This document shows, piece after piece, positions 1 through 15,993 of a stretch of 15,993 bases of DNA (position 1 is its first letter; each line of letters opens with the position of its first letter). Source of the DNA: a virus. Taxonomy: Duplodnaviria; Heunggongvirae; Uroviricota; Caudoviricetes. The DNA lies in the IMG/VR virus record IMGVR_UViG_637000264_000001, one strand, 5' to 3'. The position numbers were made by a program, and so were the translations under genes. The notes beneath the pieces were generated by a model, which saw nothing but the letters and a program-made list of their open reading frames with translations, did no database searches and was not told the DNA's origin.

Positions 1-45
1 GTGATAGTCTTAATACTAGTTTTTAGACTTGTCATTGGAGAACAG

Positions 46-411
46 ATTATTGATGTCTTAGGGCCGGAGAAACGCAGACGGCGTACCACACAGGAAAAGA
101 TCGCAATTGTTCAGCAGAGCTTTGAACCGGGGATGACGGTCTCCCTCGTTGCCCGGCAACATGGTGTAGCAGCCAGCCAGTTATTTCTCTGGCGTAAGCA
201 ATACCAGGAAGGAAGTCTTACTGCTGTGGCCGCCGGAGAACAGGTTGTTCCTGCCTCTGAACTTGCTGCCGCCATGAAGCAGATTAAAGAACTCCAGCGC
301 CTGCTCGGCAAGAAAACGATGGAAAATGAACTCCTCAAAGAAGCCGTTGAATATGGACGGGCAAAAAAGTGGATAGCGCACGCGCCCTTATTGCCCGGGG
401 ATGGGGAGTAA
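46..411 (+). CDS. insC: IS2 transposase OrfA (InsC); expected initiator position reads ATT instead of ATG
   Basis: Translation ...[40 protein letters not shown]... ending PLLPGDGE matches InsC; codon 46..48 is att where InsC (MIDVLGPEK...) needs ATG. The ORF-track start at position 1 is a window-edge artefact. Confidence 0.8.
363..369 (+). promoter_or_regulatory. A6G slippery heptamer (aaaaaag), candidate programmed -1 frameshift site joining insC to insD
   Basis: gcaaaaaagtgg at the insC/insD overlap; IS3-family elements make an OrfAB fusion by -1 slippage on A6G motifs (established knowledge). Confidence 0.7.
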
Positions 412-1274
412 GCTTAGTCAGCCGTTGTCTCCGGGTGTCGCGTGCGCAGTTGCACGTCATTCTCAGACGAACCGATGACTGGATGGATGGCCGCCGCAGT
501 CGTCACACTGATGATACGGATGTGCTTCTCCGTATACACCATGTTATCGGAGAGCTGCCCACGTATGGTTATCGTCGGGTATGGGCGCTGCTTCGCAGAC
601 AGGCAGAACTTGATGGTATGCCTGCGATCAATGCCAAACGTGTTTACCGGATCATGCGCCAGAATGCGCTGTTGCTTGAGCGAAAACCTGCTGTACCGCC
701 ATCGAAACGGGCACATACAGGCAGAGTAGCCGTGAAAGAAAGCAATCAGCGATGGTGCTCTGACGGGTTCGAGTTCTGCTGTGATAACGGAGAGAGACTG
801 CGTGTCACGTTCGCGCTGGACTGCTGTGATCGTGAGGCACTGCACTGGGCGGGGACTACCGGCGGCTTCAACAGTGAAACAGTACAGGACGTCATGCTGG
901 GAGCGGTGGAACGCCGCTTCGGCAACGATCTTCCGTCGTCTCCAGTGGAGTGGCTGACGGATAATGGTTCATGCTACCGGGCTAATGAAACACGCCAGTT
1001 CGCCCGGATGTTGGGACTTGAACCGAAGAACACGGCGGTGCGGAGTCCGGAGAGTAACGGAATAGCAGAGAGCTTCGTGAAAACGATAAAGCGTGACTAC
1101 ATCAGTATCATGCCCAAACCAGACGGGTTAACGGCAGCAAAGAACCTTGCAGAGGCGTTCGAGCATTATAACGAATGGCATCCGCATAGTGCGCTGGGTT
1201 ATCGCTCGCCACGGGAATATCTGCGGCAGCGGGCTTGTAATGGGTTAAGTGATAACAGATGTCTGGAAATATAG
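369..1274 (+). CDS. insD: IS2 transposase OrfB (InsD), DDE integrase-type catalytic domain
   Basis: 301-aa [33 protein letters not shown]...[24 protein letters not shown], overlapping insC in the -1 frame; matches recalled InsD over its whole length. Confidence 0.92.
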
Positions 1275-1333
1275 GGGCAAATCCAGTATAAGCCATTATC
1301 AAACCCACCCGTAGATAGGCTTTGTAATGGCTA

Positions 1334-1623
1334 CTTCTTCAGAAATGATTCGATGAATTCACGTCGAGGATGACGATAGTTCAGAATATCTTCTGGCATC
1401 CTCATAAAGCGGTTGTTGCCGTCTTTGGCAGTAACAAAACAGCTGTGAACTCCGCAGACATCCGTTTTGATCGTGTCGCTATACTCAAAAAGCAACTGAG
1501 CCATCTTCTCTTGCCATTCTGGAGGCATAGCCTCCATGAATACTCGCGGCATCACGCAGAACGACGCATGCGTAAGACCAAACCACAGTTGCAGGTCTTT
1601 ACGATATTCTTCATCCATCGTCT
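1334..1623 (-). pseudogene. Orphan 3' fragment (about 97 codons) of an unidentified gene, trapped between the IS2 right end and the IS911 end
   Basis: Minus-strand frame open from the IS911 boundary to stop at 1331..1333 (...EEYRKDLQLWFGLTHASFCVMPRVFMEAMPPEWQEKMAQLLFEYSDTIKTDVCGVHSCFVTAKDGNNRFMRMPEDILNYRHPRREFIESFLKK). The first 26 codons of track ORF 1331..1702 are IS911 sequence. Family not recognised. Confidence 0.5.
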
Positions 1624-1631
1624 TGAAGTGG

Positions 1632-2801
<1,170 letters not shown>

Positions 2802-2873
2802 TGGAGCACCTGTGTTGTTCTGAGGTGAGCATATCACCTCTGTTCAGGTGGCCAAATTCAGTGTGCCACTTCA

Positions 2874-3914
2874 CCTTTCTTTCCGAACCTTGTTGATCAC
2901 CTTCTGGTTAAGCATCACACGGCTGATGGCGTTGAAGATGGCATTTCAATCTGCTACTTCAAGCCATACTCGCAAGGCCGTGCTCGCTGGCAGGGTGACA
3001 CAATCCACGGCGTGTGGTTTGACGAAGAGCCACCATACAGCATTTATGGCGAAGGTCTTACCCGTACCAACAAATACGGGCAATTCTCAATTCTGACGTT
3101 TACCCCGCTGATGGGGATGTCTGACGTTGTTACCAAGTTCCTGAAGAACCCCAGCAAGTCGCAGAAAGTGGTCAACATGACCATCTATGACGCTGAGCAC
3201 TATACCGACGAGCAGAAAGAGCAAATCATCGCATCATATCCCGAGCATGAGAGAGAGGCGCGTGCTCGCGGTATTCCTACGATGGGTAGTGGTCGAATCT
3301 TCCAGATACCGGAAGAGACGATTAAGTGTCAGCCGTTCGAGTGTCCTGATCACTTCTACGTAATTGGCGGGATGGATTTCGGATGGGATCACCCACAGGC
3401 GCAAGTTCAGCTTTGGTGGGATAAGGAGGCAGACACAATCTACGTTTCACGCGTGTGGAAGGCGAAAGAAAAAACAGCCGTTCAGGCGTGGGGAGCCGTT
3501 AAATCATGGGCGCATAAAGTGCCAACCGCATGGCCTCATGATGGAAACCAGCACGAGAAGGGCGGCGGTGAGCAGCTCAAAGGGCAGTATGCAGACGCTG
3601 GATTTATGATGTTGCAGGAGCATGCGACATGGCCTGATGGCGGTAACGCTGTTGAGCCAGGCATCACTGAATTGCGCGACATGATGCTCGATGGTCGCTT
3701 CAAAGTATTCAATACCTGTGAGCCATTCTTTGAGGAGTTCCGCCTCTATCACCGTGATGAAAACGGGAAAATCGTCAAGCTTAACGACGACGTGCTATCC
3801 GCCGTTCGCTATGCATACATGATGCGCCGCTTCGCAAAAATGATGCGCGACATCAAAAAACCAAAAGAGAAAAAGATACCAGCCCCAATCAGGCCCATCG
3901 CACGGAGAACTTAA
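2874..3914 (+). pseudogene. Terminase large subunit, 5'-truncated by IS911 (about 347 C-terminal codons remain: Walker B onward plus nuclease domain)
   Basis: Frame open from the IS911 boundary: ...GDTIHGVWFDEEPPYSIYGEG... (Walker-B-like hhhDEE), later HFYVIGGMDFGWDHP and KLNDDVLSAVRYAYMMRR typical of terminase nuclease domains; stop 3912..3914 abuts the portal ATG. No Walker A segment in the window. Confidence 0.8.
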
Positions 3915-6080
3915 ATGGCCGACGAAAACAGACTCAATTCCATTCTGTGTAAGTTTGACGCAGACTGGATGGCGAGCGATGAAGCCAGAACCGAGGCGAC
4001 AAATGACCTGTATTTTAGCCGAGTGTCGCAATGGGATGACTGGCTATCAAACTACACTACCCTGCAATATCGCGGACAATTCGATGTTGTTCGCCCGGAG
4101 GTCAGGAAACTGGTCGCAGAGATGCGCCGGAACCCTGTCGACGTTCTCTTCCGACCCAAAGACGGCGCTAATCCTGATGCAGCCGATGTATTGATGGGGA
4201 TGTATCGTACTGATATGCGCCATAACACGGCAAAGATTGCCGTTAACGTTGGCGTTCGTGAGCAGATAGAGTCAGGCGTTGGTGCATGGCGTCTGGTCAC
4301 GCAGTACGAAGACAACGATCCAACAAGCAACAATCAGGTAATCCGACGCCTGCCAATCCATGAAGCCTGCTCACACGTCATATGGGACGCCAACAGCAAG
4401 CAGATGGATAAGAGCGACGCTAAGCACTGCACGGTGATTAACGCCTTGTCGCGCAATGGCTGGAAAGAGTTCGCAGAGGATTACGGTATTGACCCGGATA
4501 CCCTGCCATCTTTCCAGAATCCTAACGATACATGGCTATTCCCGTGGGTGTCGAATGATGTCGTCTACGTCGCTGAGTATTACGAGGTAGAAGAGGAGAA
4601 GGAGAAGGTCTTCATCTACCGCGACCCGCTGACAGGTGAGCCGGTCAGCTATTACCAGCAGGATATCAAAGACGTCATCGACGACCTGGCTAATCGTGGA
4701 TTCATTAAGGTAGCAGAGCGCAAGGTGAAGCGTCGGCGTGTGTATAAGTCGATCATCACCTGTACGCAGATACTGAAAGACCGCGAGAAGATAGCCGGAG
4801 AGCATATTCCAATCGTTCCAGTGTATGGCGAATGGTCATTCGCTGGTGACAAGGAGTGCTACGAGGGTGTGGTAAGGCTGACGAAAGACGGTCAACGCCT
4901 TCGTAACATGATTATGTCGTTCAACGCCGATATTGTTGCTCGGTCACCGAAGAAGAAACCGACCTTCTTCCCTGAGCAAATCGAAGGCTACGAATACATG
5001 TACGGCGGAAATGATGACTATCCGTACTATCTGCAGAACAGGACTGATGAAAACGGTAACGACCTGCCGATTGGTCCAATCTCCTACATGGAAAACCCTG
5101 AAGTGCCGCAAGCCAACGCTTACATGCTTGAGGCTGCCACCAACGCAGTGAAAGAAGTGGCTAGTCTTGGCGTGGATGCGCAGGCGGCAAATGGTCAGGT
5201 CGCTTTTGATACCGTCAATCAACTGAACATGCGGGCAGACCTTGAGACATACGTGTTTCAGGATAACCTGGCTACCGCAATGCGACGTGATGGCGAGATT
5301 TATGCCTCAATGGTCAACGATATTTATGACGTTCCTCGTCATGTAACGCTGACACTTGAAGATGGAAGCGAGAAAGACGTTCAACTCTATGCGCAAGTTG
5401 TCGATTACCAGTCCGGCAATGTGGTCACACTCAACGACATTCGCGGTCGATATGAGTGCTATACAGACGTTGGGCCATCCTTCCAGAGTATGAAGGAACA
5501 GAACCGCGCAGAGATTCAGGAGTTGCTCACCAAGGTTCCGCAAGGTACTCCAGAGTTCCAGATGCTGATGCTGCAATACTTCACGCTGCTTGACGGTAAA
5601 GGCGTCGAGATGATGCGAGAGTACGCGAACAAGCAACTGGTGATGATGGGGCTGAAGAAACCAGAAACACCTGAAGAGATGGAGATGGTGCAGCAGGCAC
5701 AACAACAGCCGCAGCAGCCATCAGCAGAGCAAATTCAGGCGCAGGGTATCCTTCTGCAAGGTCAGGCTGAATTGCTCAAGGCAGAGAACCAACAGGCGCA
5801 GATTCAGGTTGAAGCTGCCAAGGTTGAAGCCCAAAACCAACTCAACGCCGCGAAGATTGCAGAAATATTCAACAATATGGACCTCGACAAGCAGGCAGAA
5901 CTGCGTGAGTACCTCAGGCTCGTAGGTCAATTCCAGCAACAGCGCAGCAAAGATGCTCGTGCTAACGCTGAGCTGCTTCTTAAAGATGCAGACCAGACTC
6001 ATTCACAACGCATGGATTTCGCGAATCTTATGCGTCAAGTTCAAATCCCCTCCGGCGGAGTAGCCGAGACACCTCAATAA
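3915..6080 (+). CDS. Portal protein (P22 gp1-like, 721 aa)
   Basis: Full-length ORF; near-collinear similarity to P22 portal as I recall it ([11 protein letters not shown]...[15 protein letters not shown]...[15 protein letters not shown]...[23 protein letters not shown]...), with the Gln-rich helical C-terminus. Confidence 0.95.
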
Positions 6081-6093
6081 GAGAGAGTTAATC

Positions 6094-7005
6094 ATGGACC
6101 AAACCACCGACATTCAGGCTTCTGAAGAATTAACCCTGCCCGGCAATCATGCAGCGGCATCTGCTGATGGCTTAGTTGTCGATAATGCCAACGACAGCGC
6201 AGGTCAGGAAGAAGGCTTTGAGATTGTCCGGAAAGACGATGAGAAACCAAAACAAGACCCGGCAACTAATGCTGAATTTGCCCGTCGCCGCATCGAACGC
6301 AAACGCCAGCGTGAGCTTGAGCAGCAGATGGAAGCGGTTAAGCGTGGAGAGTTGCCGGAGCACCTGCGGGTGAACCCTGAGTTACCAAAACAACCAGACC
6401 CTAACGATTATCTTTCCGAAGATGCACTGGCTAAGTACGACTATGACCAGAGCCGCGCACTGGCTGCCTTCCAGCAGGCAAACAGTGAATGGCAGATCAA
6501 GGCTATGGACGCACGAAGCCAGGCTGTCGCCGAGCAGGGTCGCAAAACTCAGGAGTTCACCCAGCAATCAGCGCAATACGTCGAGGCGGCCCGTAAGCAC
6601 TACGAGGCAGCGGAAAAGCTCAATATCCCTGACTATCAGGAGAAAGAGGATGCATTCATGCAACTGGTGCCGCCAGCAGTCGGTGCCGACATCATGCGCC
6701 TCTTCCCGGAGAAATCCGCCGCTCTCATGTATCACCTTGGTGCTAATCCTGAGAAAACACGCCAGTTGCTGGCGATGGACGGGCAATCCGCGCTGATTGA
6801 ACTCACTCGACTGTCAGAACGTTTAACTCTCAAGCCTCGAGCCAAGCCTGTTTCAGAAGCCCCGTTACCTGATGAACCCATTCAGGGACATGCTGTTGCT
6901 GCAAATATCTCTGCGATTGAAAAGCAGATGGAGGCGGCAGCAAACAAAGGGGATGTAGAGACGTACCGCAAGCTCAAGGCGCAACTGAATAAAGGAATTC
7001 GATAA
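6094..7005 (+). CDS. Scaffolding protein (P22 gp8-like, 303 aa)
   Basis: Position between portal and coat; same length as P22 scaffold; sequence ...[49 protein letters not shown]...[18 protein letters not shown]; RBS gagag upstream. Confidence 0.9.
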
Positions 7006-8300
7006 TGGCATTAAATGAAGGTCAACTGGTCACGTATGCTCTGGATGAAATCATCGGAACCGTCCAGAACCTGACGCCAATGGCGTCAAAAGTGACAAAA
7101 TACCCCCCTCCGGCAGAATCCATGCAGCGTTCAAGCAACACCGTGTGGATGCCTGTTGAGCAGGAAGCGCCAACCCAGACTGGCTGGGATTTAACTGGCA
7201 ACGCAACCGGGATTCTGGAACTCTCCGTGAAGTGCAACATGGGCGATCCGGATAACGATTTCTTCGAGCTTCGTGCAGATGACCTGCGTGATGAGCGTTC
7301 TTACCGTCGCCGCATCCAGGCATCCGCCAAAAAACTGGCGAATAACATTGAGTCAGCGATTGCCAAACAGGCAACTGAAATGGGCTCGCTTGTTGTTCAC
7401 GATACCCGCGCAATTGGTCCATCGACTGGCCTGCCTGGCTGGGATTTTGTGTCTGATGCAGAGCGACTGATGTTCTCCCGTGAGCTAAACCGCGACATGG
7501 GCATCAGTTACTTCCTGAACCCTGACGATTACCGCAAAGCAGGCCGCAACCTGGTAGATGGTGACATCTTCGGGCGCGTTCCTGAAGAAGCATATCGAAA
7601 CGGTACTATTCAGCGTCAGATTGCTGGCTTTGATGAAATTCTTCGCTCACCGAAACTTCCGGCAGTTACCAAGTCAACCGCGACTGGTGTAACTGTTTCT
7701 GGTGCGCAGAAGTTTAAGCCGCAGGCATACACCCTTGATACCGATGGTAACAAAGAGAACGTCGACAACCGTGTTGCAACGGTGACCGTATCCTCCACCA
7801 CCGGATTTAAGCGCGGCGACAAAATCAGCTTCATTGGTGTGAAGTTCCTGTCTCAGATGGCGAAGAATGTGCTGACTGATGACGCGACTTTCTCAATCAC
7901 CCGTGTGATCGATGGTACTCACATCGAAATCACGCCGAAGCCGATTGCGCTGGATGACGCGTCACTGACAAAAGAAGAGAAGGCTTACGCTAACGTAAAC
8001 ACCTCTCTTGCTGATACCACTCCGGTAAACGTTCTGAACGTGGCAACAACCACCGCTAACGTGTTCTGGGCTGATGACTCAATCCGCCTGCTGTCTCAGC
8101 CGATCCCGGTAACCCATGAACTGTTTGCTGGCATGAAAACGTCTTCCTTCAGCATTCCAGGTATTGGTGTTAACGGCATCTTCGCAACGCAGGGTGATAT
8201 CAACACTCTGTCTGGTAAGTGCCGTATTGCTGTGTGGTATTCAGCATGTGCTGTACGACCAGAGGCAATTGGTGTTGGTCTGCCTAACCAGACCGCGTGA
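7005..8300 (+). CDS. Major capsid (coat) protein (P22 gp5-like, 431 aa)
   Basis: [10 protein letters not shown]...[23 protein letters not shown]...[29 protein letters not shown]... closely matches P22 coat; start overlaps scaffold stop (taatg). Confidence 0.95.
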
Positions 8301-8306
8301 TAACCA

Positions 8307-8331
8307 GAGGGAGCTTCGGCTCCCGTTTTTA
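8307..8331 (+). terminator. Rho-independent terminator-like hairpin directly after the coat gene
   Basis: gggagc-ttcg-gctccc (6-bp GC-rich stem 8309..8314 / 8319..8324, TTCG tetraloop) followed by gttttta. Confidence 0.7.
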
Positions 8332-8344
8332 TCTGGAGACAAGC

Positions 8345-8575
8345 ATGACACACATGATCTTTCGTCATGGCGACATGAAGAAGTGGAAAGGCGTTGGCTA
8401 CGACTTTGAAATCGTGAAAGCCGAAGAGCTTCAGGAATATCTGGATGCTGGCTGGTTTTCACATCCTGATGACCTTTTGAAGGATGTTGCAGAGCCAGAG
8501 CCAGAAGAAAAACAGCGTAAAAAGCCTGGTCGAAAACCTAAGGCGGCAGCAGATGAACCTGACAACGAAGGGTGA
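8345..8575 (+). CDS. Small hypothetical protein (76 aa) between coat and gp4-like genes
   Basis: ATG at 8345 with ggaga 7 nt upstream; [76 protein letters not shown]; 3' end overlaps the next gene start by 23 nt. No family recognised. Confidence 0.6.
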
Positions 8576-9053
8576 TTTAGTTCTTGCGGCATTACGTAAG
8601 CTCGGTGTTGCATCAAATGCCACGTTAACCGATGTCGAACCGCAGTCTATGGAAGACGGCGTCAACGACCTTGAAATGATGATGGCTGAATGGCTTGGCG
8701 GTGATGCGTCACCTGGTATCAACGTTGGCTACATTTTTGCTGATGCAGATGTTGCTCCGGATCCGGGCGATGAGCACGGTTTATCAAATAACGCTATCAA
8801 TGCCGTCATTTTCAACCTTGCCTGCCGAATTGCTCCAGATTATGCGCTGGAAGCGTCTGCAAAACTTATAACCACTGCCAGATACGGGAAAGAGCGACTC
8901 GTCAAACTGTCTGCAATGGACAGGGCAAAAGCAGCTAAATGTAAGTCCGGTTATCCAAACCGTATGCCTGTTGGTAGTGGTAACCAGTTGGCGAAGTGGA
9001 ATGGTTGGAATTACTTCCACCGAAAGGAACCTTGCGATAACGGGAGCGAATAA
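8553..9053 (+). CDS. Head-completion / tail-accessory protein (P22 gp4-like, 166 aa)
   Basis: [47 protein letters not shown]...[14 protein letters not shown]... resembles P22 gp4 and has the same length; the track ORF from 8484 is an upstream in-frame extension. Confidence 0.85.
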
Positions 9054-10471
9054 TGCCTATTCAGCAACTTCCGCTTATGAAAGGTGTCGGCAAAGACTTC
9101 CGAAACGCCGACTATATCGACTATCTGCCAGTGAATATGCTGGCTACACCCAAAGAAATCCTGAACAGCAGCGGATATCTTCGCTCATTCCCGGGCATTG
9201 CCAAACGTTCTGACGTGAACGGTGTATCTCGCGGCGTCGAGTACAACATGGCGCAGAATGCTGTTTATCGCGTGTGTGGCGGCAAGCTGTACAAAGGAGA
9301 AAGTGAAGTCGGTGATGTTGCCGGAAGTGGTCGTGTATCAATGGCGCATGGTCGGACATCACAGGCGGTAGGCGTTAATGGTCAACTGGTCGAGTATCGC
9401 TATGATGGCACGGTCAAAACCGTCTCAAACTGGCCTACAGACAGTGGATTCACTCAGTATGAGTTAGGTTCAGTTCGCGACATTACGCGCTTACGTGGGC
9501 GTTATGCGTGGTCAAAAGACGGAACTGATTCATGGTTTATCACTGACCTTGAAGACGAATCTCATCCTGACCGTTACAGCGCACAATATCGTGCCGAGTC
9601 TCAGCCTGACGGCATCATCGGTATCGGGACATGGCGAGACTTCATCGTCTGCTTTGGTTCATCGACTATTGAATATTTCTCCCTGACTGGCGCAACCACC
9701 GTTGGTGCCGCTTTGTATGTTGCACAACCATCGCTGATGGTGCAGAAAGGCATTGCCGGAACTTACTGCAAAACGCCATTCGCTGATTCGTATGCGTTTA
9801 TCAGCAATCCGGCAACGGGTGCGCCGTCTGTGTATATCATCGACTCCGGTCAGGTGTCACCAATTGCCAGCGCGAGCATTGAGAAAATCCTCCGCTCCTA
9901 CACTGCTGATGAACTGGCTGATGGTGTGATGGAATCGCTGCGATTTGATGCTCATGAGTTGCTGATTATCCACCTTCCGCGTCACGTCCTCGTGTACGAC
10001 GCATCTTCAATCGCCAATGGCCCACAATGGTGTGTGCTGAAAACAGGTCTGTATGACGATGTGTACCGCGCTATCGACTTCGTTTACGAAGGCAATCAGA
10101 TAACGTGCGGCGATAAGCTGGAATCTGTTACCGGGAAACTGCAATTCGATATCAGCAGCCAGTACGACAAGCAACAGGAACACCTGCTGTTTACTCCACT
10201 CTTCAAAGCGGATAACGCCAGAGTGTTCGACCTTGAGGTTGAATCGTCAACTGGCGTTGCGCAGTACGCCGACCGCCTTTTTCTCTCTGCAACCACTGAC
10301 TGCATCAATTACGGGCGTGAGCAGATGATTGAGCAGAATGAACCGTTCGTTTACGACAAGCGTGTTTTGTGGAAGCGAGTAGGGCGCATCAGGAAAAATG
10401 TCGGCTTCAAATTGCGCGTTATCACGAAGTCACCTGTCACTCTGTCTGGCGCTCAGATAAGGATTGAGTAA
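9053..10471 (+). CDS. Tail-accessory protein (P22 gp10-like, 472 aa)
   Basis: [49 protein letters not shown]... strong collinear match to P22 gp10, same length; taatg overlap with upstream gene. Confidence 0.9.
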
Positions 10472-11319
10472 TGGCTGATTCGAATCTCAATGTGCCGGTA
10501 ATCATCCAAGCTACGCGGCTCGATACATCAGTCCTTCCACGCAATATCTTCTCGCAGTCGTATCTGCTTTACGTTATCGCACAGGGCACTGATGTTGGTA
10601 ACGTGGCTAACAAAGCCAACGAGGCCGGACAGGGCGCTTATGATGCACAGGTCAGGAACGATGAGCAGGATGTGATTCTCGCTGACCATGAGCAGCGAAT
10701 TTCTGCTGCGGAAGCAACGCTTGTTAATCATGAGGAGCGAATCAGACAGGCAGAATCAACTCTTCAGGACCATGAAACACGAATAGCTCAGAATGAAAGC
10801 GATATTTCGTCGCTTGACACAAGAGTTCAGTCGCTGGAGTCGCAGGTTTCAGACCATGAAACGCGCATCGATGCTCTGGAGTATGCAACCACACGCAAGA
10901 AGTCAGAGGTTGTTTACTCTGGTGTATCTGTAACCATCCCGACAGCGCCGACCAACCTTGTTAGCCTGCTGAAAACGCTCACACCGTCATCCGGCTCGTT
11001 GGCACCATTCTTCGACACCGTTAACAACAAGATGGTTGTGTTCAACGAGAACAAAACCCTGCTCTTCAAGTTGTCGATTGTCGGCACGTGGCCCAGCGGA
11101 ACCGCCAACAGGTCAATGCAGCTAACCTTTTCCGGCTCTGTTCCTGACACACTGGTCAGCAGTCGTAATGCGGCGACAACAACCGACAACATCCTGTTAG
11201 CTACGTTCTTCAGCGTGGATAAAGACGGCTTTCTTGCCACAAATGGCAGTACGTTAACCATTCAGTCGAATGGTGCGGCGTTTACTGCCACAACCATCAA
11301 GATAATCGCGGAGCAGTGA
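10471..11319 (+). CDS. Tail needle protein (P22 gp26 family) with C-terminal knob domain (Sf6/HK620 type, 282 aa)
   Basis: N-terminus [43 protein letters not shown] matches gp26; central heptad-repeat coiled coil; C-terminal ~140 aa non-helical Ser/Thr-rich extension. Confidence 0.85.
10684..10880 (+). repeat. Tandem ~42-nt (14-codon) periodic repeats encoding DHExRI-type coiled-coil units within the tail needle gene
   Basis: gaccatgagcagcgaat (10684), aatcatgaggagcgaat (10726), gaccatgaaacacgaat (10768), gaccatgaaacgcgcat (10851); protein [67 protein letters not shown]. Confidence 0.7.
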
Positions 11320-11774
11320 TGATTACATTCAAACCAACGCGAAACATCGACCTGATAGAAGCAGTCGGAAATCACCCTGACATTATCGCCGGGAGCAACA
11401 ACGGTGATGGATACGACTACAAACCTGAATGCCGTTACTTTGAGGTGAACGTGCACGGTCAGTTTGGCGGCATTGTTTACTATCAGGAGATTCAGCCGCT
11501 GACATTAGATTGCCACGCCATGTACCTGCCAGAGATTCGCGGCTTCAGCAAGGAAATTGGGCTGGCGTTCTGGCGATACATTCTGACTAACACCACCGTT
11601 CAGTGCGTAACATCGTTCGCTGCACGCAAATTCCGACACGGTCAGATGTACTGCGCAATGATTGGCCTTAAGCGTGTAGGAACCATCAAGAAATACTTCA
11701 AAGGCGTGGATGACGTGACTTTTTACAGCGCCACACGCGAAGAACTAATCGACTTCCTGAATCACGGGAGATAG
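11319..11774 (+). CDS. P22 gp14-like virion assembly protein (151 aa)
   Basis: [23 protein letters not shown]...YDYKPECRYFEVNVHGQFGGIVYY...; ATG at 11319 overlaps the tail needle stop (gtgatga); the track start at 11316 is GTG one codon upstream. Confidence 0.8.
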   Translation: MITFKPTRNIDLIEAVGNHPDIIAGSNNGDGYDYKPECRYFEVNVHGQFGGIVYYQEIQPLTLDCHAMYLPEIRGFSKEIGLAFWRYILTNTTVQCVTSFAARKFRHGQMYCAMIGLKRVGTIKKYFKGVDDVTFYSATREELIDFLNHGR

Positions 11775-11776
11775 CC

Positions 11777-12469
11777 ATGTTATATGCATTTAAGCTGGGC
11801 AGAAAACTGCGCGGCGAGGAACCTTATTGCCCTGAAAAAGGCGGGAAAGGTGGCAGTTCTGATAAAAGCGCAAAGTATGCAGCAGAAGCCCAGAAGTATG
11901 CTGCAGACCTGCAAAATCAGCAGTGGCAGACGATCATGAAAAACCTTGCTCCGTTCACGCCTCTTGCGGAGCAGTATGTTAACCAGCTTCAGAACCTTTC
12001 CAGTTTAGAAGGTCAGGGGCAGGCACTTAATCAGTATTACAACTCTAAGCAGTATAAAGACCTTGCAGGGCAGGCGCGTTACCAGAGTCTTGCTGCTGCG
12101 GAGGCGACGGGTGGACTTGGTTCGACAGCCACAAGCAATCAACTGGCTACGATCGCGCCGACACTCGGTCAGTCTTGGTTATCAAATCAGATGAGCAATT
12201 ACAACAATCTGGCAAACGTTGGGCTTGGTGCGCTGCAAGGTCAGGCAAACGCCGGGCAGACGTACGCCAACAACATGAGCAGCATTGCACAGCAAAGCGC
12301 AGCTCTTGCCGCTGCTAATGCCAATAAACCATCAAGTCTTCAGACTGCAATTAGCGGTGGCACGTCTGGTGCGATTGCCGGTGCAGGTCTTGCCAGCCTT
12401 TTGGGAACATCAACGCCTTGGGGCGCTGGTATTGGTGCTGGTATCGGATTGCTTGGCTCGTTGTTTTAA
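11777..12469 (+). CDS. Ejection (injection) protein, P22 gp7-like (230 aa)
   Basis: Position after gp14-like; Gln/Asn/Ala-rich with Gly/Ala-rich hydrophobic C-terminus (GAIAGAGLASLLGTSTPWGAGIGAGIGLLGSLF). Confidence 0.75.
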   Translation: MLYAFKLGRKLRGEEPYCPEKGGKGGSSDKSAKYAAEAQKYAADLQNQQWQTIMKNLAPFTPLAEQYVNQLQNLSSLEGQGQALNQYYNSKQYKDLAGQARYQSLAAAEATGGLGSTATSNQLATIAPTLGQSWLSNQMSNYNNLANVGLGALQGQANAGQTYANNMSSIAQQSAALAAANANKPSSLQTAISGGTSGAIAGAGLASLLGTSTPWGAGIGAGIGLLGSLF

Positions 12470-12478
12470 GGGGGAATC

Positions 12479-13810
12479 ATGGCTACTTGGCAAGGAACAA
12501 ACGGCGGATTGTTGGCTGGTATCGGCGGCGTCAACTCAAACGCTCCGAGCGTAAATGACATCGGCAATACGCTTCAGCTTATCAGGCAGAACAATGATAT
12601 TGAGCGTTCAGGCGCTAACAATGTTGGGCTGACTGCTTTGCAAGGTCTTTCAGGTATTGCGGGTGTTTTTCAGCAGGAAAAGCAGGCTCAGCGGCAGAAA
12701 GAATTTCAGCAGGCGTACGCTAATGCTTATGCGTCTGGTGATCGCGGTGCTTTGCGTCAGTTGGCTACTCAATATCCAGACCAGATTGAATCCGTTCGTA
12801 AAGGCATGGGATTCATTGATGAAGAGCAGCGTAATTCTATCGGCACCTTAGCGGCTGGCGCACGCCTTGCGTCATCGTCTCCAGAAGCAATGCAATCATG
12901 GCTGCAAAACAACGCCGGTGAGTTAGCTCGTGTTGGCGTTAATCCTCATGACGTCGCTCAGATGTACCAACAGAACCCGCGGCAGTTCGGCGAATTTGTC
13001 GATCACCTGGGGATGAACAGTCTCGGGCCCGAAAAATACTTTGACCTACAGGATAAAATGCAGGGTCGCCAGGTTACCATGCGCGGTCAGGATCTGGATT
13101 CGCAAACCGCCGCTCGGAATCAGGCAATCACAATGCGCGGACAAGATATCCAGGCGAATTTAGGTCAGCAGCGCATTAATCTGGACGCAGAAACAAACCG
13201 CATTAACAACGAAAATAAGCGCCTTGACCGGATGCTATCAGCAGAAACTAACGACCTGAAGCGCCAGGAAATACAGAGCCGCATAGCAGCCAACAACCAG
13301 CAGTTGCAGCAGAAGCAGCAAGCGCTAAATGATGGCTACAAAGACGGCATCAACACCCTCACAACCAGCATGTTCACTCTGAACGATATCGTTAGTTCTC
13401 CTTCACTTAAGAGCATTACAGGCTTACGTGGAGTAATCCCCAACGTTCCAGGCTCACAGGCTGCAGACACTCAGGCACGACTTGATACCTTTAAATCACA
13501 AGCATACCTGACAGCGGTTCAGGCCATGCGAGGCATGGGCGCACTTTCTGATGCCGAGGGCAAAAAGCTCGACCAGGCTGTTGGTTCGCTGCAGAACTCG
13601 CAGAGCGAGGAGTCCTTTCGTCGCAACGCTGGCGTCATCCTGAACACGCTCAACCAGAAGCGTAATGAGGCGGTTGGTAAGTACGTTCAGCAAAACGGTA
13701 TCAAGCGAGTGGAAGCGCCTCAGGCTTCTATAGATTACCTGAAGCAGCACCCCGAGCTGTCAATCGACTTCATTAATCGCTACGGATATCTTCCATCTTT
13801 GGGGCAGTAA
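12479..13810 (+). CDS. Ejection protein, P22 gp20-like (443 aa)
   Basis: Synteny; Gln-rich predicted coiled-coil protein with internal repeat VTMRGQDLD / ITMRGQDIQ; RBS aaggggg upstream. Confidence 0.75.
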   Translation: MATWQGTNGGLLAGIGGVNSNAPSVNDIGNTLQLIRQNNDIERSGANNVGLTALQGLSGIAGVFQQEKQAQRQKEFQQAYANAYASGDRGALRQLATQYPDQIESVRKGMGFIDEEQRNSIGTLAAGARLASSSPEAMQSWLQNNAGELARVGVNPHDVAQMYQQNPRQFGEFVDHLGMNSLGPEKYFDLQDKMQGRQVTMRGQDLDSQTAARNQAITMRGQDIQANLGQQRINLDAETNRINNENKRLDRMLSAETNDLKRQEIQSRIAANNQQLQQKQQALNDGYKDGINTLTTSMFTLNDIVSSPSLKSITGLRGVIPNVPGSQAADTQARLDTFKSQAYLTAVQAMRGMGALSDAEGKKLDQAVGSLQNSQSEESFRRNAGVILNTLNQKRNEAVGKYVQQNGIKRVEAPQASIDYLKQHPELSIDFINRYGYLPSLGQ

Positions 13811-15541
13811 ATGGCTAATTACCGTGATTTGTTAGAGCAGGCTGGCGCACGTTACGGTGTGCCAGAAGGGTTGATGACTGCACTGGGTGCCAAGGAGTCT
13901 TCTTACAACCCTGCCGCAGTAAGCTCCGCCGGGGCTGTAGGATTGACTCAGGTCATGCCTGGGACATGGCGTGATATGGGTTATACCGATGAGCAAATGC
14001 AAAACCCCGAATATCAGGCTGACGCTGGCGCGCGCTATCTGGCAAAGATGTACCAGCAGTTTGGTAACTGGCGTGACTCTCTTCAGGCTTATCACGACGG
14101 TCCCGGCAACGTTATGAAGGCAAAGCGTGGTGAATATACGCCAGGACCTGAAGGCCGCGGTTACGTTGATGATCGCTTTGCTCAATGGGCTGGTGACCCG
14201 GTGACAGACTCAACAGTCGAACAGCGCGCCACCTCTGCAAAGGTACATCCTCAGCAAGACCCTAACAACCCGTTTGCACAACTGGAAGTACAGTCATCCG
14301 AACAAGTATCGGCATCAGGTGTGCAGTCAGACCCAAATAATCCATTTGCTCAGATTGAGCAGCAGGCAGCCAGTCAGCAGCCACCTCAACCCGTAAGTTC
14401 TGTCGCACCGAAACCTGTTCAGCAACAAACAGTTAATCAGGCCAATAATGCACCAACACGGGAAGAACCATCATTGATGCAACAAGCTGGCGATTGGCTC
14501 ACTGGTGGTCAAAGTGCAGGGCAAATTGCAGAACAGGCTGGTCGTGGTCTGGTAAACATACCATTTGACGTATTGCAGGGTGGCGCAAGTCTGATTAATG
14601 CAATCAGTCAGGGGCTTGGGGGGCCAAAAGTATTGGATGATGTTTATCGTCCAGTAGACAGACCGACAGACCCCTACGCGCAAGCTGGAGAGTCAATAGG
14701 CGGTTATCTTGTTCCTGGAGCAGGTGTAGCTGGAAACATGGTCATTGGTTCTCTCGCTGACGCGGCGAATCAACGGGGTGATTTTGCCGAAAATGCCGCT
14801 ATTAATGCCGGACTTAGCATTGCTACGCATGGCCTGATAAATGGCGTTACCCGTGGTGTTCGTGGTGCATCAAATATAATTAGTGGCAATAAAACATCTG
14901 CACAGAGAGCGACCACTGCGCCAACAGAAACATCACCATTCTCCGGTGATGCCGCTGCAGCAACAAATCCTGCGGTTCATGCCGCAGAGGCAAGAGTAGC
15001 ACAAGGTGTACCAATGACGCCTGCGACGAAGAACCCAGAGGAAGTCGTTCGCACAGTAGCAGCACAAAAAAGGCCAAATCTCGCTTCATCGCTTGATGAA
15101 CTAGATATCAATCCTCAGGCTGAAGTTCTGGAGTCTGCTGAAAGGCTTAATGTTGATTCATTACTCCCTTCACACTTTTCCGGGAACGAGCAATACAAGG
15201 CAGTTGAGCAAGCAATCAAGTCCCGTGCGGGTTCTGCTCTACAGGTGCAGGAAAATGAAGCAATCAGGCAGCTAGCACAGGGCGCGGGTGAGATAATTGA
15301 TCGCGTTTCCGGTGCAAAAGATGCTCTTGGTATGAGCGACAAGTTTATTGATACGGTCAATGGAAGAATGTCTGCGCTGATGAAACGAAGCGACCAGCTT
15401 TATCGCAATGTTGAAAAGGCGATGCCTGCAGGTGCAAAAATTGATGCGCCATCAACAAGGTCAATGCTCAAACAGGTGGCAGAAGATCTTGGCGGGATGA
15501 AAAACCTTGACCCTATTGAAAAGAGAGTTGAGGTAGCCTGA
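13811..15541 (+). CDS. Ejection protein (P22 gp16 position) with N-terminal lytic transglycosylase (SLT) domain; the last three codons and stop come from the adjacent IS600 end
   Basis: N-terminus has the SLT signature [28 protein letters not shown] ... AYHDGPGNV; the frame enters the IS600 terminus at 15529 and stops at 15539..15541 (...KRVEVA*), so the native 3' end is probably missing. Confidence 0.8.
14258..14359 (+). repeat. Direct repeat encoding DPNNPFAQ(L/I)E twice, 72 nt apart, in the linker after the SLT domain
   Basis: gaccctaacaacccgtttgcacaactggaa (14258) and gacccaaataatccatttgctcagattgag (14330). Confidence 0.75.
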
Positions 15542-15612
15542 GTTTAACGGACACTCCTTCCTGAAATAGAATGGCATCAGAAGGAGCTAATAATGAGCAG
15601 AAAAACCCAACG
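15529..15612 (+). mobile_element. IS600 left-end fragment (terminal repeat plus first 7 codons of orfA), interrupted by the IS629-type element
   Basis: tgaggtagcctgagtttaacggacactccttcctgaaatagaatggcatcagaaggagctaataATGAGCAGAAAAACCCAACG matches my recollection of the IS600 left end and orfA start (MSRKTQR); continuity then breaks into the IS629 terminus. Confidence 0.6.
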
Positions 15613-15993
15613 TGAACCGCCCCGGGAATCCTGGAGACTAAACTTCCTGAGAAAGAGGTAAACAGGATGACTAAAAATACTCGTTTTTCCCCCGAAGTCC
15701 GTCAACGGGCAGTCCGTATGGTTCTGGAAAGTCAGGGCGAATATGACTCACAATGGGCGACAATTTGTTCCATTGCCCCAAAGATTGGCTGTACGCCGGA
15801 GACTCTGCGTGTCTGGGGTCGCCAGCATGAGCGGGATACCGGGGGCGGTGATGGAGGGCTCACCACCGCTGAACGTCAGCGTCTGAAAGAGCTGGAGCGT
15901 GAAAATCGTGAACTGCGCCGCAGTAACGATATCCTTCGCCAGGCTTCCGCTTATTTTGCGAAGGCGGAGTTCGACCGCCTCTGGAAAAAATGA
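15613..15993 (+). mobile_element. IS629 / IS1203-type element (IS3 family), left end and orfA; continues beyond the window
   Basis: Left terminus tgaaccgccccgggaatcctggagactaaacttcctgagaaagaggtaaacagg followed by orfA; matches the recalled IS629/IS1203 left end. Confidence 0.85.
15667..15993 (+). CDS. IS629/IS1203 OrfA (108 aa)
   Basis: [108 protein letters not shown]; ends in ggaaaaaatga, the expected orfA/orfB overlap. Confidence 0.88.

Follow-up and report, generated by a model that had tools for sequence, protein, structure and literature searches.

The window, as we call the whole stretch of 15,993 nucleotides analysed here, is 100% identical to the Shigella flexneri chromosome CP182555.1 and contains, at positions 2874–15528, a 12.66-kb part of a late operon of P22-like (Lederbergvirus) type (Table 1). 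Homology to phage spans exactly 2871/2874 to 15528, and the 95–97% nucleotide identity to Lederbergvirus genomes is confined to 2871–15528. Within these boundaries, the genes are collinear with the Lederbergvirus late operon from TerL to gp16, each matching its P22 family. The block is neighboured by IS elements and chromosomal genes; specifically, T6SS genes lie upstream and psiF-phoA-ddlA downstream.

Table 1. Coordinates of the features in the window
Feature	Position	Strand	Match or remark
IS2, 5' end cut by window edge	1..1285	+	Pfam HTH_Tnp_1, rve
3' remnant of phage late-region gene, function unassigned	1286..1623	-	phrog_3527, E = 1e-55
IS911, 1250 bp	1624..2873	-	Pfam; IS911 annotation in matching records
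Large terminase (TerL) 3' remnant, residues 154-499	2874..3914	+	Terminase_6N, Terminase_6C
Portal (gp1-like), 721 aa, intact ORF	3915..6080	+	PF16510, E = 3e-161
Scaffolding protein (gp8-like), 303 aa, derived L46R and D171E	6094..7005	+	PF09306, E = 6e-177
Coat (gp5-like), 431 aa, derived E18G, T34P and T277I	7005..8300	+	PF11651, E = 1e-163
Hairpin and T-run, intrinsic-terminator-like, just past coat	8309..8324	+	
Small ORF, 76 aa, in P22 orf69 position	8345..8575	+	phrog_1175
gp4-like tail accessory / head-completion protein, 166 aa	8553..9053	+	PF11650
gp10-like packaged-DNA stabilisation protein, 472 aa	9053..10471	+	PF11134, E = 1e-298
Tail needle (gp26-like), Sf6-type knob, 282 aa	10471..11319	+	PF16532, E = 2e-116
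gp14-like head morphogenesis protein, 151 aa	11319..11774	+	PF11039, phrog_651
gp7-like ejection protein, 230 aa	11777..12469	+	PF25688, E = 3e-134
gp20-like ejection protein, 443 aa	12479..13810	+	PF16928
gp16-like ejection protein, SLT lytic transglycosylase domain, truncated	13811..15528	+	PF01464
First ~88 bp of IS600, itself interrupted	15529..15616	+	85/88 nt match
5' part of IS3-family element, inserted into IS600	15617..15993	+	HTH_Tnp_1
Recombination patch, 2a-type vs 8401-type	8837..13498	.	~155 substitutions (3.3%)

Nine genes are full length and free of stops, with Pfam matches that follow the P22 gene order at E values from 1e-53 to 1e-299 and with lengths equal to those of intact relatives, such as the E. 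coli F1005 prophage and phage APC_JM3.2. The portal is 99% identical to portals of intact phages, and identical copies of the gp4-like protein occur in many intact E. coli prophages. The positions and lengths of the ORFs are as the first-pass annotation gave them, with starts and stops that adjoin or share one base, and its central observation, intact structural genes beside a destroyed terminase, is confirmed by the ORF coordinates, the Pfam matches and the comparison with intact relatives. Its description of the nine proteins as uninterrupted holds for the open ORFs but not for the residues, since the window lineage carries derived missense changes. P22 has an annotated 'RNA stem-loop' after its coat gene, at the same place as the terminator-like hairpin. 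The 76-aa ORF holds a strain-variable (CAGAGC)n repeat, with a 6-bp length polymorphism at 8490. Some lesions are confined to single strains: gp7 carries a +1 frameshift in 2002017, the needle gene of CP037996 has lost 51 bp, and both truncated genes have frameshifts; some of these frameshifts may be sequencing errors.

At the left end, IS2, whose right end was placed at ~1285 by reading of the terminal inverted repeat, has ORFs at 1–411 and 369–1274 that match HTH_Tnp_1 and rve, and matching E. coli records label this element IS3-like, IS2 family. The adjacent late-gene remnant contains a 95-aa ORF (1331–1618), which aligns to positions 139–230 of the 233-position phrog_3527 profile. In 8401-type strains, the same ORF is 172 aa long and adjoins an Rz/lysozyme/holin cassette in inverted orientation, with 94% identity to APC_JM3.2; in the window strain this lysis cassette is deleted. 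The IRL of IS911 adjoins the terminase remnant, and its transposase is directed away from the phage genes. IS911 has no target-site duplication (flanking triplets TCT vs CCT), its orfB is frameshifted by one G at position 720 that the L010 copy, with its open orfB, does not have, and its orientation varies among strains. Alignment to the 499-aa TerL of APC_JM3.2 shows that residues 1–153, the start codon and Walker A (60–67) are gone, the remnant covering only positions 101–214 of the Terminase_6N profile, plus Terminase_6C. The terminase had been described as lacking its N-terminal ATPase half; the loss of Walker A and of the start bears this out, but it amounts to 31% of the protein, and the Walker B region and nuclease domain stay.

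At the right end, the last ejection gene is IS-truncated, as had been stated. Compared with the intact 911-aa gp16-like genes of F1005 and APC_JM3.2, the gene is interrupted at ~residue 573 of 911, where it meets the 5' end of IS600, with 338 C-terminal residues gone, and its ORF reads on to a stop at 15541 within IS600. The 85 of 88 IS600 nucleotides that match are 100% identical to S. flexneri plasmid elements annotated as IS600. The element inserted into IS600 is labelled 'IS3 family transposase' in the matching records; by its terminal sequence, it resembles IS629/IS1203. Judged by gene-call coordinates and an assumed IS length, it appears to adjoin psiF directly.

Automated annotation of gp16 deserves a remark of its own. 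The PGAP annotation presents F1005 gp16 as truncated like that of Shigella, which we ruled out because the F1005 gene has 911 intact codons; the PGAP call for EC581 gp16 has the same form. PGAP tags intact 911-aa E. coli genes as 'missing C-terminus' and places their annotated end where the Shigella junction lies. Separately, the IS-truncated Shigella protein of 576 aa forms a PHROG family of 576 positions, and has in this way passed into a reference resource.

The terL and gp16 junctions also occur in nine further complete genomes, including AE014073, CP000266 and CP001383 (strains 2457T, 8401 and 2002017, respectively). The same junctions and chromosomal neighbours are found in at least 10 complete S. 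flexneri genomes, which fall into two haplotype groups (2a-type and 8401-type), and in every complete genome sampled the block is whole, with no internal IS insertion or large deletion. Because both junctions recur across 2457T, 8401, 2002017 and others, the truncations are older than the split of the S. flexneri lineages; dating of the IS insertions against related strains, which the first-pass annotation had proposed, thus places them before the separation of the 2a-type and 8401-type groups. The block is inherited vertically at a fixed site and is devoid of essential functions, as is a defective (cryptic) prophage remnant. Unlike in Lederbergvirus, the packaging and adsorption set is incomplete: the window carries no small terminase, no TerL residues 1–153 and hence no P-loop or full TerL ATPase, no gp16 C-terminus, no tailspike, and no early, lysis, immunity or other regulatory genes. 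The claim that the prophage is not autonomously packaging-competent is therefore upheld.

Outside the 4.66-kb patch, the two haplotypes differ by 9 substitutions in the other 7.15 kb and are ~0.1% apart. The dN/dS between the window and L011 over all genes is ~0.07, a value dominated by the patch. Because the differences in the patch are mostly synonymous, it is best read as an import from a functional phage, and as such is a small natural example of gene conversion from phage to remnant. A search of the phage collection for the donor returned, as best phages, phiKp_30, Dewey and Sf6, which are 95–96% identical to both haplotypes. Specifically, ~4 kb from gp10 to gp20 (~9048–13015) shares 95.6% identity with Sf6, a phage of S. 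flexneri.

Distinct from the phage-phase divergence of the same genes (22 nonsynonymous to 131 synonymous changes), the differences between the 2a-type and 8401-type outside the patch comprise 7 nonsynonymous and 2 synonymous substitutions (Fisher p = 8e-5), where neutrality predicts 74% nonsynonymous. In line with this, private alleles number 6N:2S in the window lineage vs 66N:266S in nine intact relatives (p = 0.0015), whereas the alleles common to both S. flexneri haplotypes, at 6N:21S, are phage-like; the dN/dS between the window and intact relatives is ~0.05. The six derived missense changes of the window lineage, namely those in coat and scaffold (Table 1) and gp16 A90S, lie at sites that do not vary among 18 intact E. 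coli phages and prophages, most of these sites being conserved in P22 too. In particular, coat E18 is a scaffold-contact (binding) residue in P22 (PMC9965877). In the portal, the haplotypes differ by no nonsynonymous substitution. In this small sample of 9–13 within-Shigella events, the surviving phage genes show relaxed selection, and purifying selection after the loss of autonomy, the mark by which domestication was judged, was not found. Within S. flexneri, dN/dS is about 1, with a wide error that makes weak constraint on some genes possible. The changes are unequal between the lineages (8 on one, 1 on the other, p = 0.04), which may reflect recombination in regions taken as outside the patch. 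The comparison of dN/dS with intact relatives that the first-pass annotation had suggested thus reveals neutral-like changes within Shigella, unlike those of the phage phase.

Open ORFs are the expected outcome under neutrality, because nonsense or frameshift mutations would not yet be expected at a divergence of ~0.1%. The expectation for 9,855 coding nt is approximately 11 substitutions, with a probability of 0.64 that no stop arises and no start is lost. Additionally, at Shigella IS densities (PMC7373316), the probability that 12.66 kb receives no IS insertion is 0.38–0.53.

Signals of expression are sparse in the block. It contains 5 promoter-like sites, counted as consensus matches only, vs 11.4 ± 3.8 in shuffles, and the late promoter region, inverted or deleted across strains, is absent from the window. 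Judged from the sequence, the block is probably not expressed; read-through into it is possible in strains where IS911 points toward it. A PADLOC scan that covered ten proteins, TerL through gp7 in gene order, assigned none of them to a defence family, the coiled coil of the needle shaft weakly matching SMC-like proteins (E = 4e-5 to 1e-3). Pfam found nothing in ten antisense or overlapping ORFs within the block, and hence no hidden moron genes, and Rfam at gathering thresholds found no RNA family in the whole window. The integrase, regulatory/replication module and own terminase of a capsid-forming PICI or satellite were not found in the window or its flanks.

These observations bear on why the structural block is still whole. 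It might be selected for a benefit to the host, for instance if a defective coat, scaffold or portal poisoned assembly when P22-like or Sf6-like phages superinfect, or if particles or proteins served the cell or a satellite. Its completeness in all sampled complete S. flexneri genomes, the occurrence of its proteins in thousands of assemblies, the nine open ORFs and the unchanged portal would fit such a role, as would the finding, reported by Bobay et al. (PNAS, 2014), that many defective prophages inherited vertically are under purifying selection. However, neutrality also predicts open ORFs, the 7N:2S pattern is neutral-like, and derived changes strike invariant residues, the scaffold-contact E18 of the coat among them. 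A promoter is not evident, a terminator-like hairpin lies past the coat gene, the late promoter and antiterminator are absent and the ten proteins scanned match no defence family, so that we consider selected retention highly improbable. Another reading holds that the prophage is only rearranged, with the 5' half of the terminase gene, the small terminase and the tailspike elsewhere and the element functional overall. IS-mediated inversions are clear, as seen in the lysis cassette of 8401-type strains and in the differing orientation of IS911, but a split terL has no means of encoding a functional ATPase, the gp16-like gene runs into IS600, behind which the IS3-family element apparently adjoins psiF, and the 10-kb flanks are chromosomal, without terS or tailspike. 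A scan for the TerL N-terminus with two peptide patterns, covering two Shigella-type genomes from a species-representative collection, yielded only the remnant among the best 80 loci, a weak negative given that a 153-aa fragment could rank below these. Mere rearrangement is therefore scarcely credible.

The patch raises a further alternative, in which infecting P22-like phages repeatedly overwrite the remnant and reset its decay, the remnant being a reservoir of phage genes. Positions 8837–13498 differ by 3.3%, mostly synonymously, between haplotypes otherwise ~0.1% apart, the ~4 kb resembling Sf6 offers a substrate for exchange, and recombination between phage and defective prophage has been shown experimentally (PMC3945230). 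On the other hand, a single patch event is visible, with either haplotype as the possible recipient and no donor closer than ~96%; the head-gene half (2874–8800) has missense decay that, in the window lineage, shows no trace of repair; and the neutral expectation by itself accounts for the open ORFs. Repeated rejuvenation is thus unlikely. There is only a small chance that the remnant acts as a recombination partner of Sf6-like or P22-like phages, periodically overwritten and perhaps donating alleles or disturbing assembly through its mutant coat, scaffold or portal subunits; if it did, the fact that it persists across S. flexneri would influence how phage infections turn out.

We conclude that the block is very probably a vertically inherited, IS-bounded Lederbergvirus prophage remnant in the S. 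flexneri chromosome, non-functional and drifting neutrally. In the order of events that we infer, insertion of IS911 followed by an IS-mediated inversion or deletion would have removed the small terminase and TerL residues 1–153, and IS911 activity would have cut the block off from its late promoter and lysis cassette. The gp16-like gene would have lost its last third to IS600 and, after it, to the IS629-like element with an adjacent deletion, and these events would also have taken away the tailspike, immunity region and integrase. The ~0.1% divergence accumulated since inactivation would correspond to roughly 10^3 years, with missense decay already showing, and in one lineage 4.66 kb would have been replaced via homologous recombination with another P22-like phage. 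The first-pass annotation had left open whether the decay was very recent or the block was kept for another reason; recent decay is favoured, on a scale of ~10^3 years yet before the lineages split, and retention is disfavoured.

Among known systems, the remnant is closest to the late module of Lederbergvirus, in particular phages APC_JM3.2, Dewey and IME10 and the E. coli F1005 prophage, and in its tail and ejection part also Sf6. It shares their gene order (terL, portal, scaffold, coat, orf69-like, gp4, gp10, gp26, gp14, gp7, gp20, gp16) and protein lengths, with 95–97% nucleotide identity to the E. coli relatives and ~78% to P22, and differs in coat and scaffold missense changes that are absent from every intact relative. 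Like GTAs, tailocins, capsid-forming PICIs and selected defective prophages, it is a vertically inherited chromosomal cluster of structural genes without a replication or lysogeny module. Unlike these domesticated elements, it displays no evident purifying selection since inactivation, has no terminase, tail or tailspike and no evident regulator or promoter, and is piling up changes at conserved residues of its structural proteins. The genome reduction of Shigella is driven by expansion of IS1, IS2, IS4, IS600 and IS911 (Hawkey et al. 2020, PMC7373316). In its bounding by IS911, IS600, IS2 and an IS3-family element, its shared junctions and its inversion and deletion variants, the remnant resembles the IS-degraded cryptic prophages of Shigella, from which nothing essential sets it apart, the uninterrupted 12.66 kb being near the mean IS spacing there. 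The remnant is an ordinary one and already catalogued.

The locus serves as a worked control, in that 12.7 kb of intact structural ORFs beside a dead terminase mimics domestication; the appearance is fully explained by the little time elapsed since IS-mediated inactivation. A literature search for a named description of the remnant or for expression data brought up, besides papers on the biology of Sf6 and P22, only generic PHAST/PHASTER listings. Prophage finders can call such a block 'intact': a 14.5-kb P22-like region of S. flexneri 2a received a PHAST score of 100 (PMC9264714), and this region is probably the present remnant.

Within the block, which is the piece of a P22-like late operon spanning 2874-15528 of the window, ORF listing and Pfam scans bear out the first-pass annotation's description of full-length, closely packed structural genes, with neighbouring ORFs abutting start to stop or overlapping by 1 base. 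Homology to P22-like phages (Lederbergvirus) spans exactly 2871/2874 to 15528 in megablast searches of phage and E. coli collections. The block is 95-97% identical to the Escherichia phages APC_JM3.2, Dewey and IME10 and to E. coli prophages, and ~78% identical to P22. Specifically, none of the nine complete genes differs in length from its counterpart in the intact E. coli prophage F1005, and complete-gene lengths equal those of APC_JM3.2, barring mosaic differences such as the needle. HNH homing-endonuclease genes, found between scaffold and coat in Dewey (L020 5058-5579) and within and around terL and gp10 in another intact relative (L110 1453-1953, 7642-8226), are absent from the Shigella remnant. 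The hexanucleotide repeat of orf76 varies by one unit, in frame, among strains, and APC_JM3.2 has an annotated repeat_region within the corresponding ORF.

Features of the block (all block genes on the + strand) and of its borders, in window positions
Feature	Position	Length	Strand	Detail
IS911	1624-2873	1250 bp	-	complete; IRL abuts terL
Terminase large-subunit remnant			+	Terminase_6N profile positions 101-214 only, plus nuclease domain
Portal		721 aa	+	
Scaffold		303 aa	+	
Coat		431 aa	+	
orf76		76 aa	+	occupies P22 orf69 position
Repeat in orf76	8478-8501			(CAGAGC)n
gp4		166 aa	+	
Patch	8837-13498	4.66 kb		end of gp4 through gp20
Sf6-like stretch	about 9048-13015	~4 kb		95.6% identical to Sf6
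gp10		472 aa	+	
Tail needle		282 aa	+	Sf6-type knob
Homologue of CP037996 deletion	11235-11285	51 bp		needle knob region
gp14		151 aa	+	
gp7		230 aa	+	
gp20		443 aa	+	
gp16-like ejection protein	13811-15541		+	SLT lytic transglycosylase domain
IS600 fragment	15529-15616	~88 bp		first part of IS600

At the left end, the TerL remnant begins at residue 154 of a 499-aa protein, so that both the start codon and Walker A (AGNQLGKS, residues 60-67) are lost; what is left still covers the Walker B region and nuclease domain. The reported N-terminal loss is thus real and removes Walker A, but it amounts to 31% of the protein rather than to a half. The transposase of the adjoining IS911 points away from the phage genes, and its orfB carries a frameshift when compared with another copy. 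The triplets flanking this IS911 (TCT on one side, CCT on the other) do not form a target-site duplication, and the junction therefore arose by IS-mediated rearrangement rather than by a simple insertion. On the far side of IS911 from terL come a 95-aa piece of a late-region ORF with no assigned function (phrog_3527) and IS2. Strains differ in how many IS911 copies stand at this junction and in which direction they point, as seen in the upstream regions of the window and of three homologous loci (L010, L011 and L012): the window has one copy on the - strand, L010 and L018 have one on the + strand, and 2457T has two inverted copies that bracket a lysis cassette. At the right end, the last ejection gene is IS-truncated as described, the gp16-like ORF running into IS600 at about residue 573, compared with 911 codons for the intact gene in F1005 and APC_JM3.2. 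The IS600 fragment is itself broken by an IS3-family element, which we take to be IS629/IS1203-like. Judging from gene-call coordinates (L007 11700-13120) and an assumed length of ~1.3 kb, this element appears to abut psiF directly, in which case an adjacent deletion would have taken the rest of IS600 together with the prophage's right arm.

By exact-protein look-up, the block proteins belong to Shigella flexneri chromosomes; CP182555.1 matches the whole window at 100% identity, and a record titled S. flexneri strain SFBU1023 matches 6.9 kb of it, also at 100%. The terL and gp16 junction sequences recur in AE014073, CP000266, CP001383 (presumably strains 2457T, 8401 and 2002017, respectively) and others, and each of these genomes has T6SS genes upstream and psiF-phoA-iraP-ddlA downstream. 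The left flank differs among strains. In genomes of the 8401 type, a holin-lysozyme-Rz cassette sits inverted between IS2 and IS911, with 94% identity to APC_JM3.2 in the Rz region; in 2457T it is the cassette enclosed by the two inverted IS911 copies, and the window strain has lost it entirely. Since this cassette is inverted or lost, the late promoter and antiterminator are disconnected from the block or absent. Neither a small terminase nor a tailspike is present within 10 kb on either side of the block, and these flanks also lack immunity genes and an integrase. Additionally, CP178302.1, titled Escherichia coli ECMA0423 (4.44 Mb), matches window 1-6911 at 100% identity, through the IS2, IS911 and terL junctions, at a similar chromosomal site (~234 kb as against ~233 kb in SFBU1023); it probably represents a Shigella flexneri genome deposited as E. 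coli.

The sampled S. flexneri genomes hold two remnant haplotypes. Among 2a-type copies, the window being one of them, there are no base substitutions over 12.66 kb, barring four singletons in CP058589.1, and the remaining differences are small indels. Between the window and the 8401-type copies there are 166 substitutions, ~155 of which fall within one tract, the patch (L011 14917-19579), where divergence is 3.3% and mostly synonymous. Outside the patch, the haplotypes are ~0.1% apart and have both IS junctions in common. The patch is a recombination (gene-conversion) import from another functional P22-like phage, which is not among the matches, and it shows that DNA passes between the remnant and P22-like phages infecting its host. 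Exchange between phages and defective prophages is already known (PMC3945230), and its occurrence here is a minor curiosity.

The window and its intact relatives give a dN/dS of ~0.05, which reflects phage-phase history and therefore does not answer whether the block is maintained. The informative comparison is between remnant copies within S. flexneri. Over all genes, 2a-type versus 8401-type dN/dS is 0.07, a value dominated by the patch. The 7.15 kb outside the patch contain nine differing sites, seven of them nonsynonymous, which fits a neutral expectation of 74% nonsynonymous and differs sharply from the phage-phase divergence of the same genes (22N:131S; Fisher p = 8e-5). Polarisation against P22 and 18 intact E. 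coli phages and prophages makes eight of the nine changes derived on the window's lineage, two being synonymous and six missense (scaffold L46R and D171E; coat E18G, T34P and T277I; gp16 A90S), and all six missense changes lie at residues invariant among all intact relatives. Residue numbering at the coat N-terminus is the same as in P22, in the procapsids of which E18 is among the N-arm acidic residues touching scaffold R293/K296 (PMC9965877; bioRxiv 10.1101/2022.12.13.520362). As controls, the private alleles of nine intact relatives sum to 66N:266S, and the alleles common to both S. flexneri haplotypes are phage-like at 6N:21S, which suggests that little relaxed-selection time passed before the lineages split. 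Both allele controls lend support to relaxed selection as a reading of these counts.

Open ORFs are unsurprising under neutral decay. Eight substitutions in 7.15 kb scale to ~11 for the complete ORFs, which total 9,855 nt and in which ~4% of random substitutions produce a new stop or a lost start; the probability of no stop or start loss is 0.64, and probably 0.2-0.4 when indels are allowed for. At S. flexneri rates of 6.5-9.5e-7 per site per year (PMC4522646), the observed divergence corresponds to roughly 700-1,700 years. A Shigella chromosome carries 229-348 IS copies (PMC7373316), and the probability that 12.66 kb is IS-free is therefore 0.38-0.53. Lesions do occur in individual strains, namely a +1 frameshift in gp7 of CP001383, frameshifts in both already truncated genes, and in CP037996 (L017) an in-frame needle deletion bracketed by the 8-bp direct repeat TGCCACAA, which leaves a 265-aa needle. 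Some single-strain lesions may be sequencing errors.

The persistence of these genes beside a destroyed terminase had been put down either to very recent decay or to retention of the block for another reason. Recent decay is supported, ORF survival and the substitution pattern both fitting neutrality. It is young in mutational terms, yet the truncations were already in place when the sampled S. flexneri lineages diverged; likewise, the genes are intact in that their ORFs are open, but missense decay is already present. Retention for a function is not supported, the changes within S. flexneri being neutral-like, but with so few substitutions it is improbable rather than refuted. A consensus scan gives 5 promoter-like sites in the block versus 11.4 +/- 3.8 in shuffled sequence. 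After coat, at the site of an annotated stem-loop in P22, comes a hairpin with a T-run, which without the phage antiterminator should block read-through into gp4-gp16. Searches for Rfam families, defence-system families and domains in antisense ORFs found none.

As Shigella cryptic prophages go, the element is routine; it has been in reference genomes for two decades and, to go by its size, GC content and best hit, is probably listed by prophage finders as P22-like or 'Salmonella 118970_sal3'-like. Its IS-truncated 576-aa gp16-like protein has entered reference resources. Specifically, phrog_21143 ('lytic tail fiber protein', 576 positions) matches the truncated protein end to end, including three IS600-encoded residues, and PGAP labels the E. 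coli F1005 and EC581 genes 'incomplete; missing C-terminus' (L019 16942-18660; L022 11541-13307). In F1005, the PGAP end coincides with the position of the Shigella IS600 junction, though the gene is intact.
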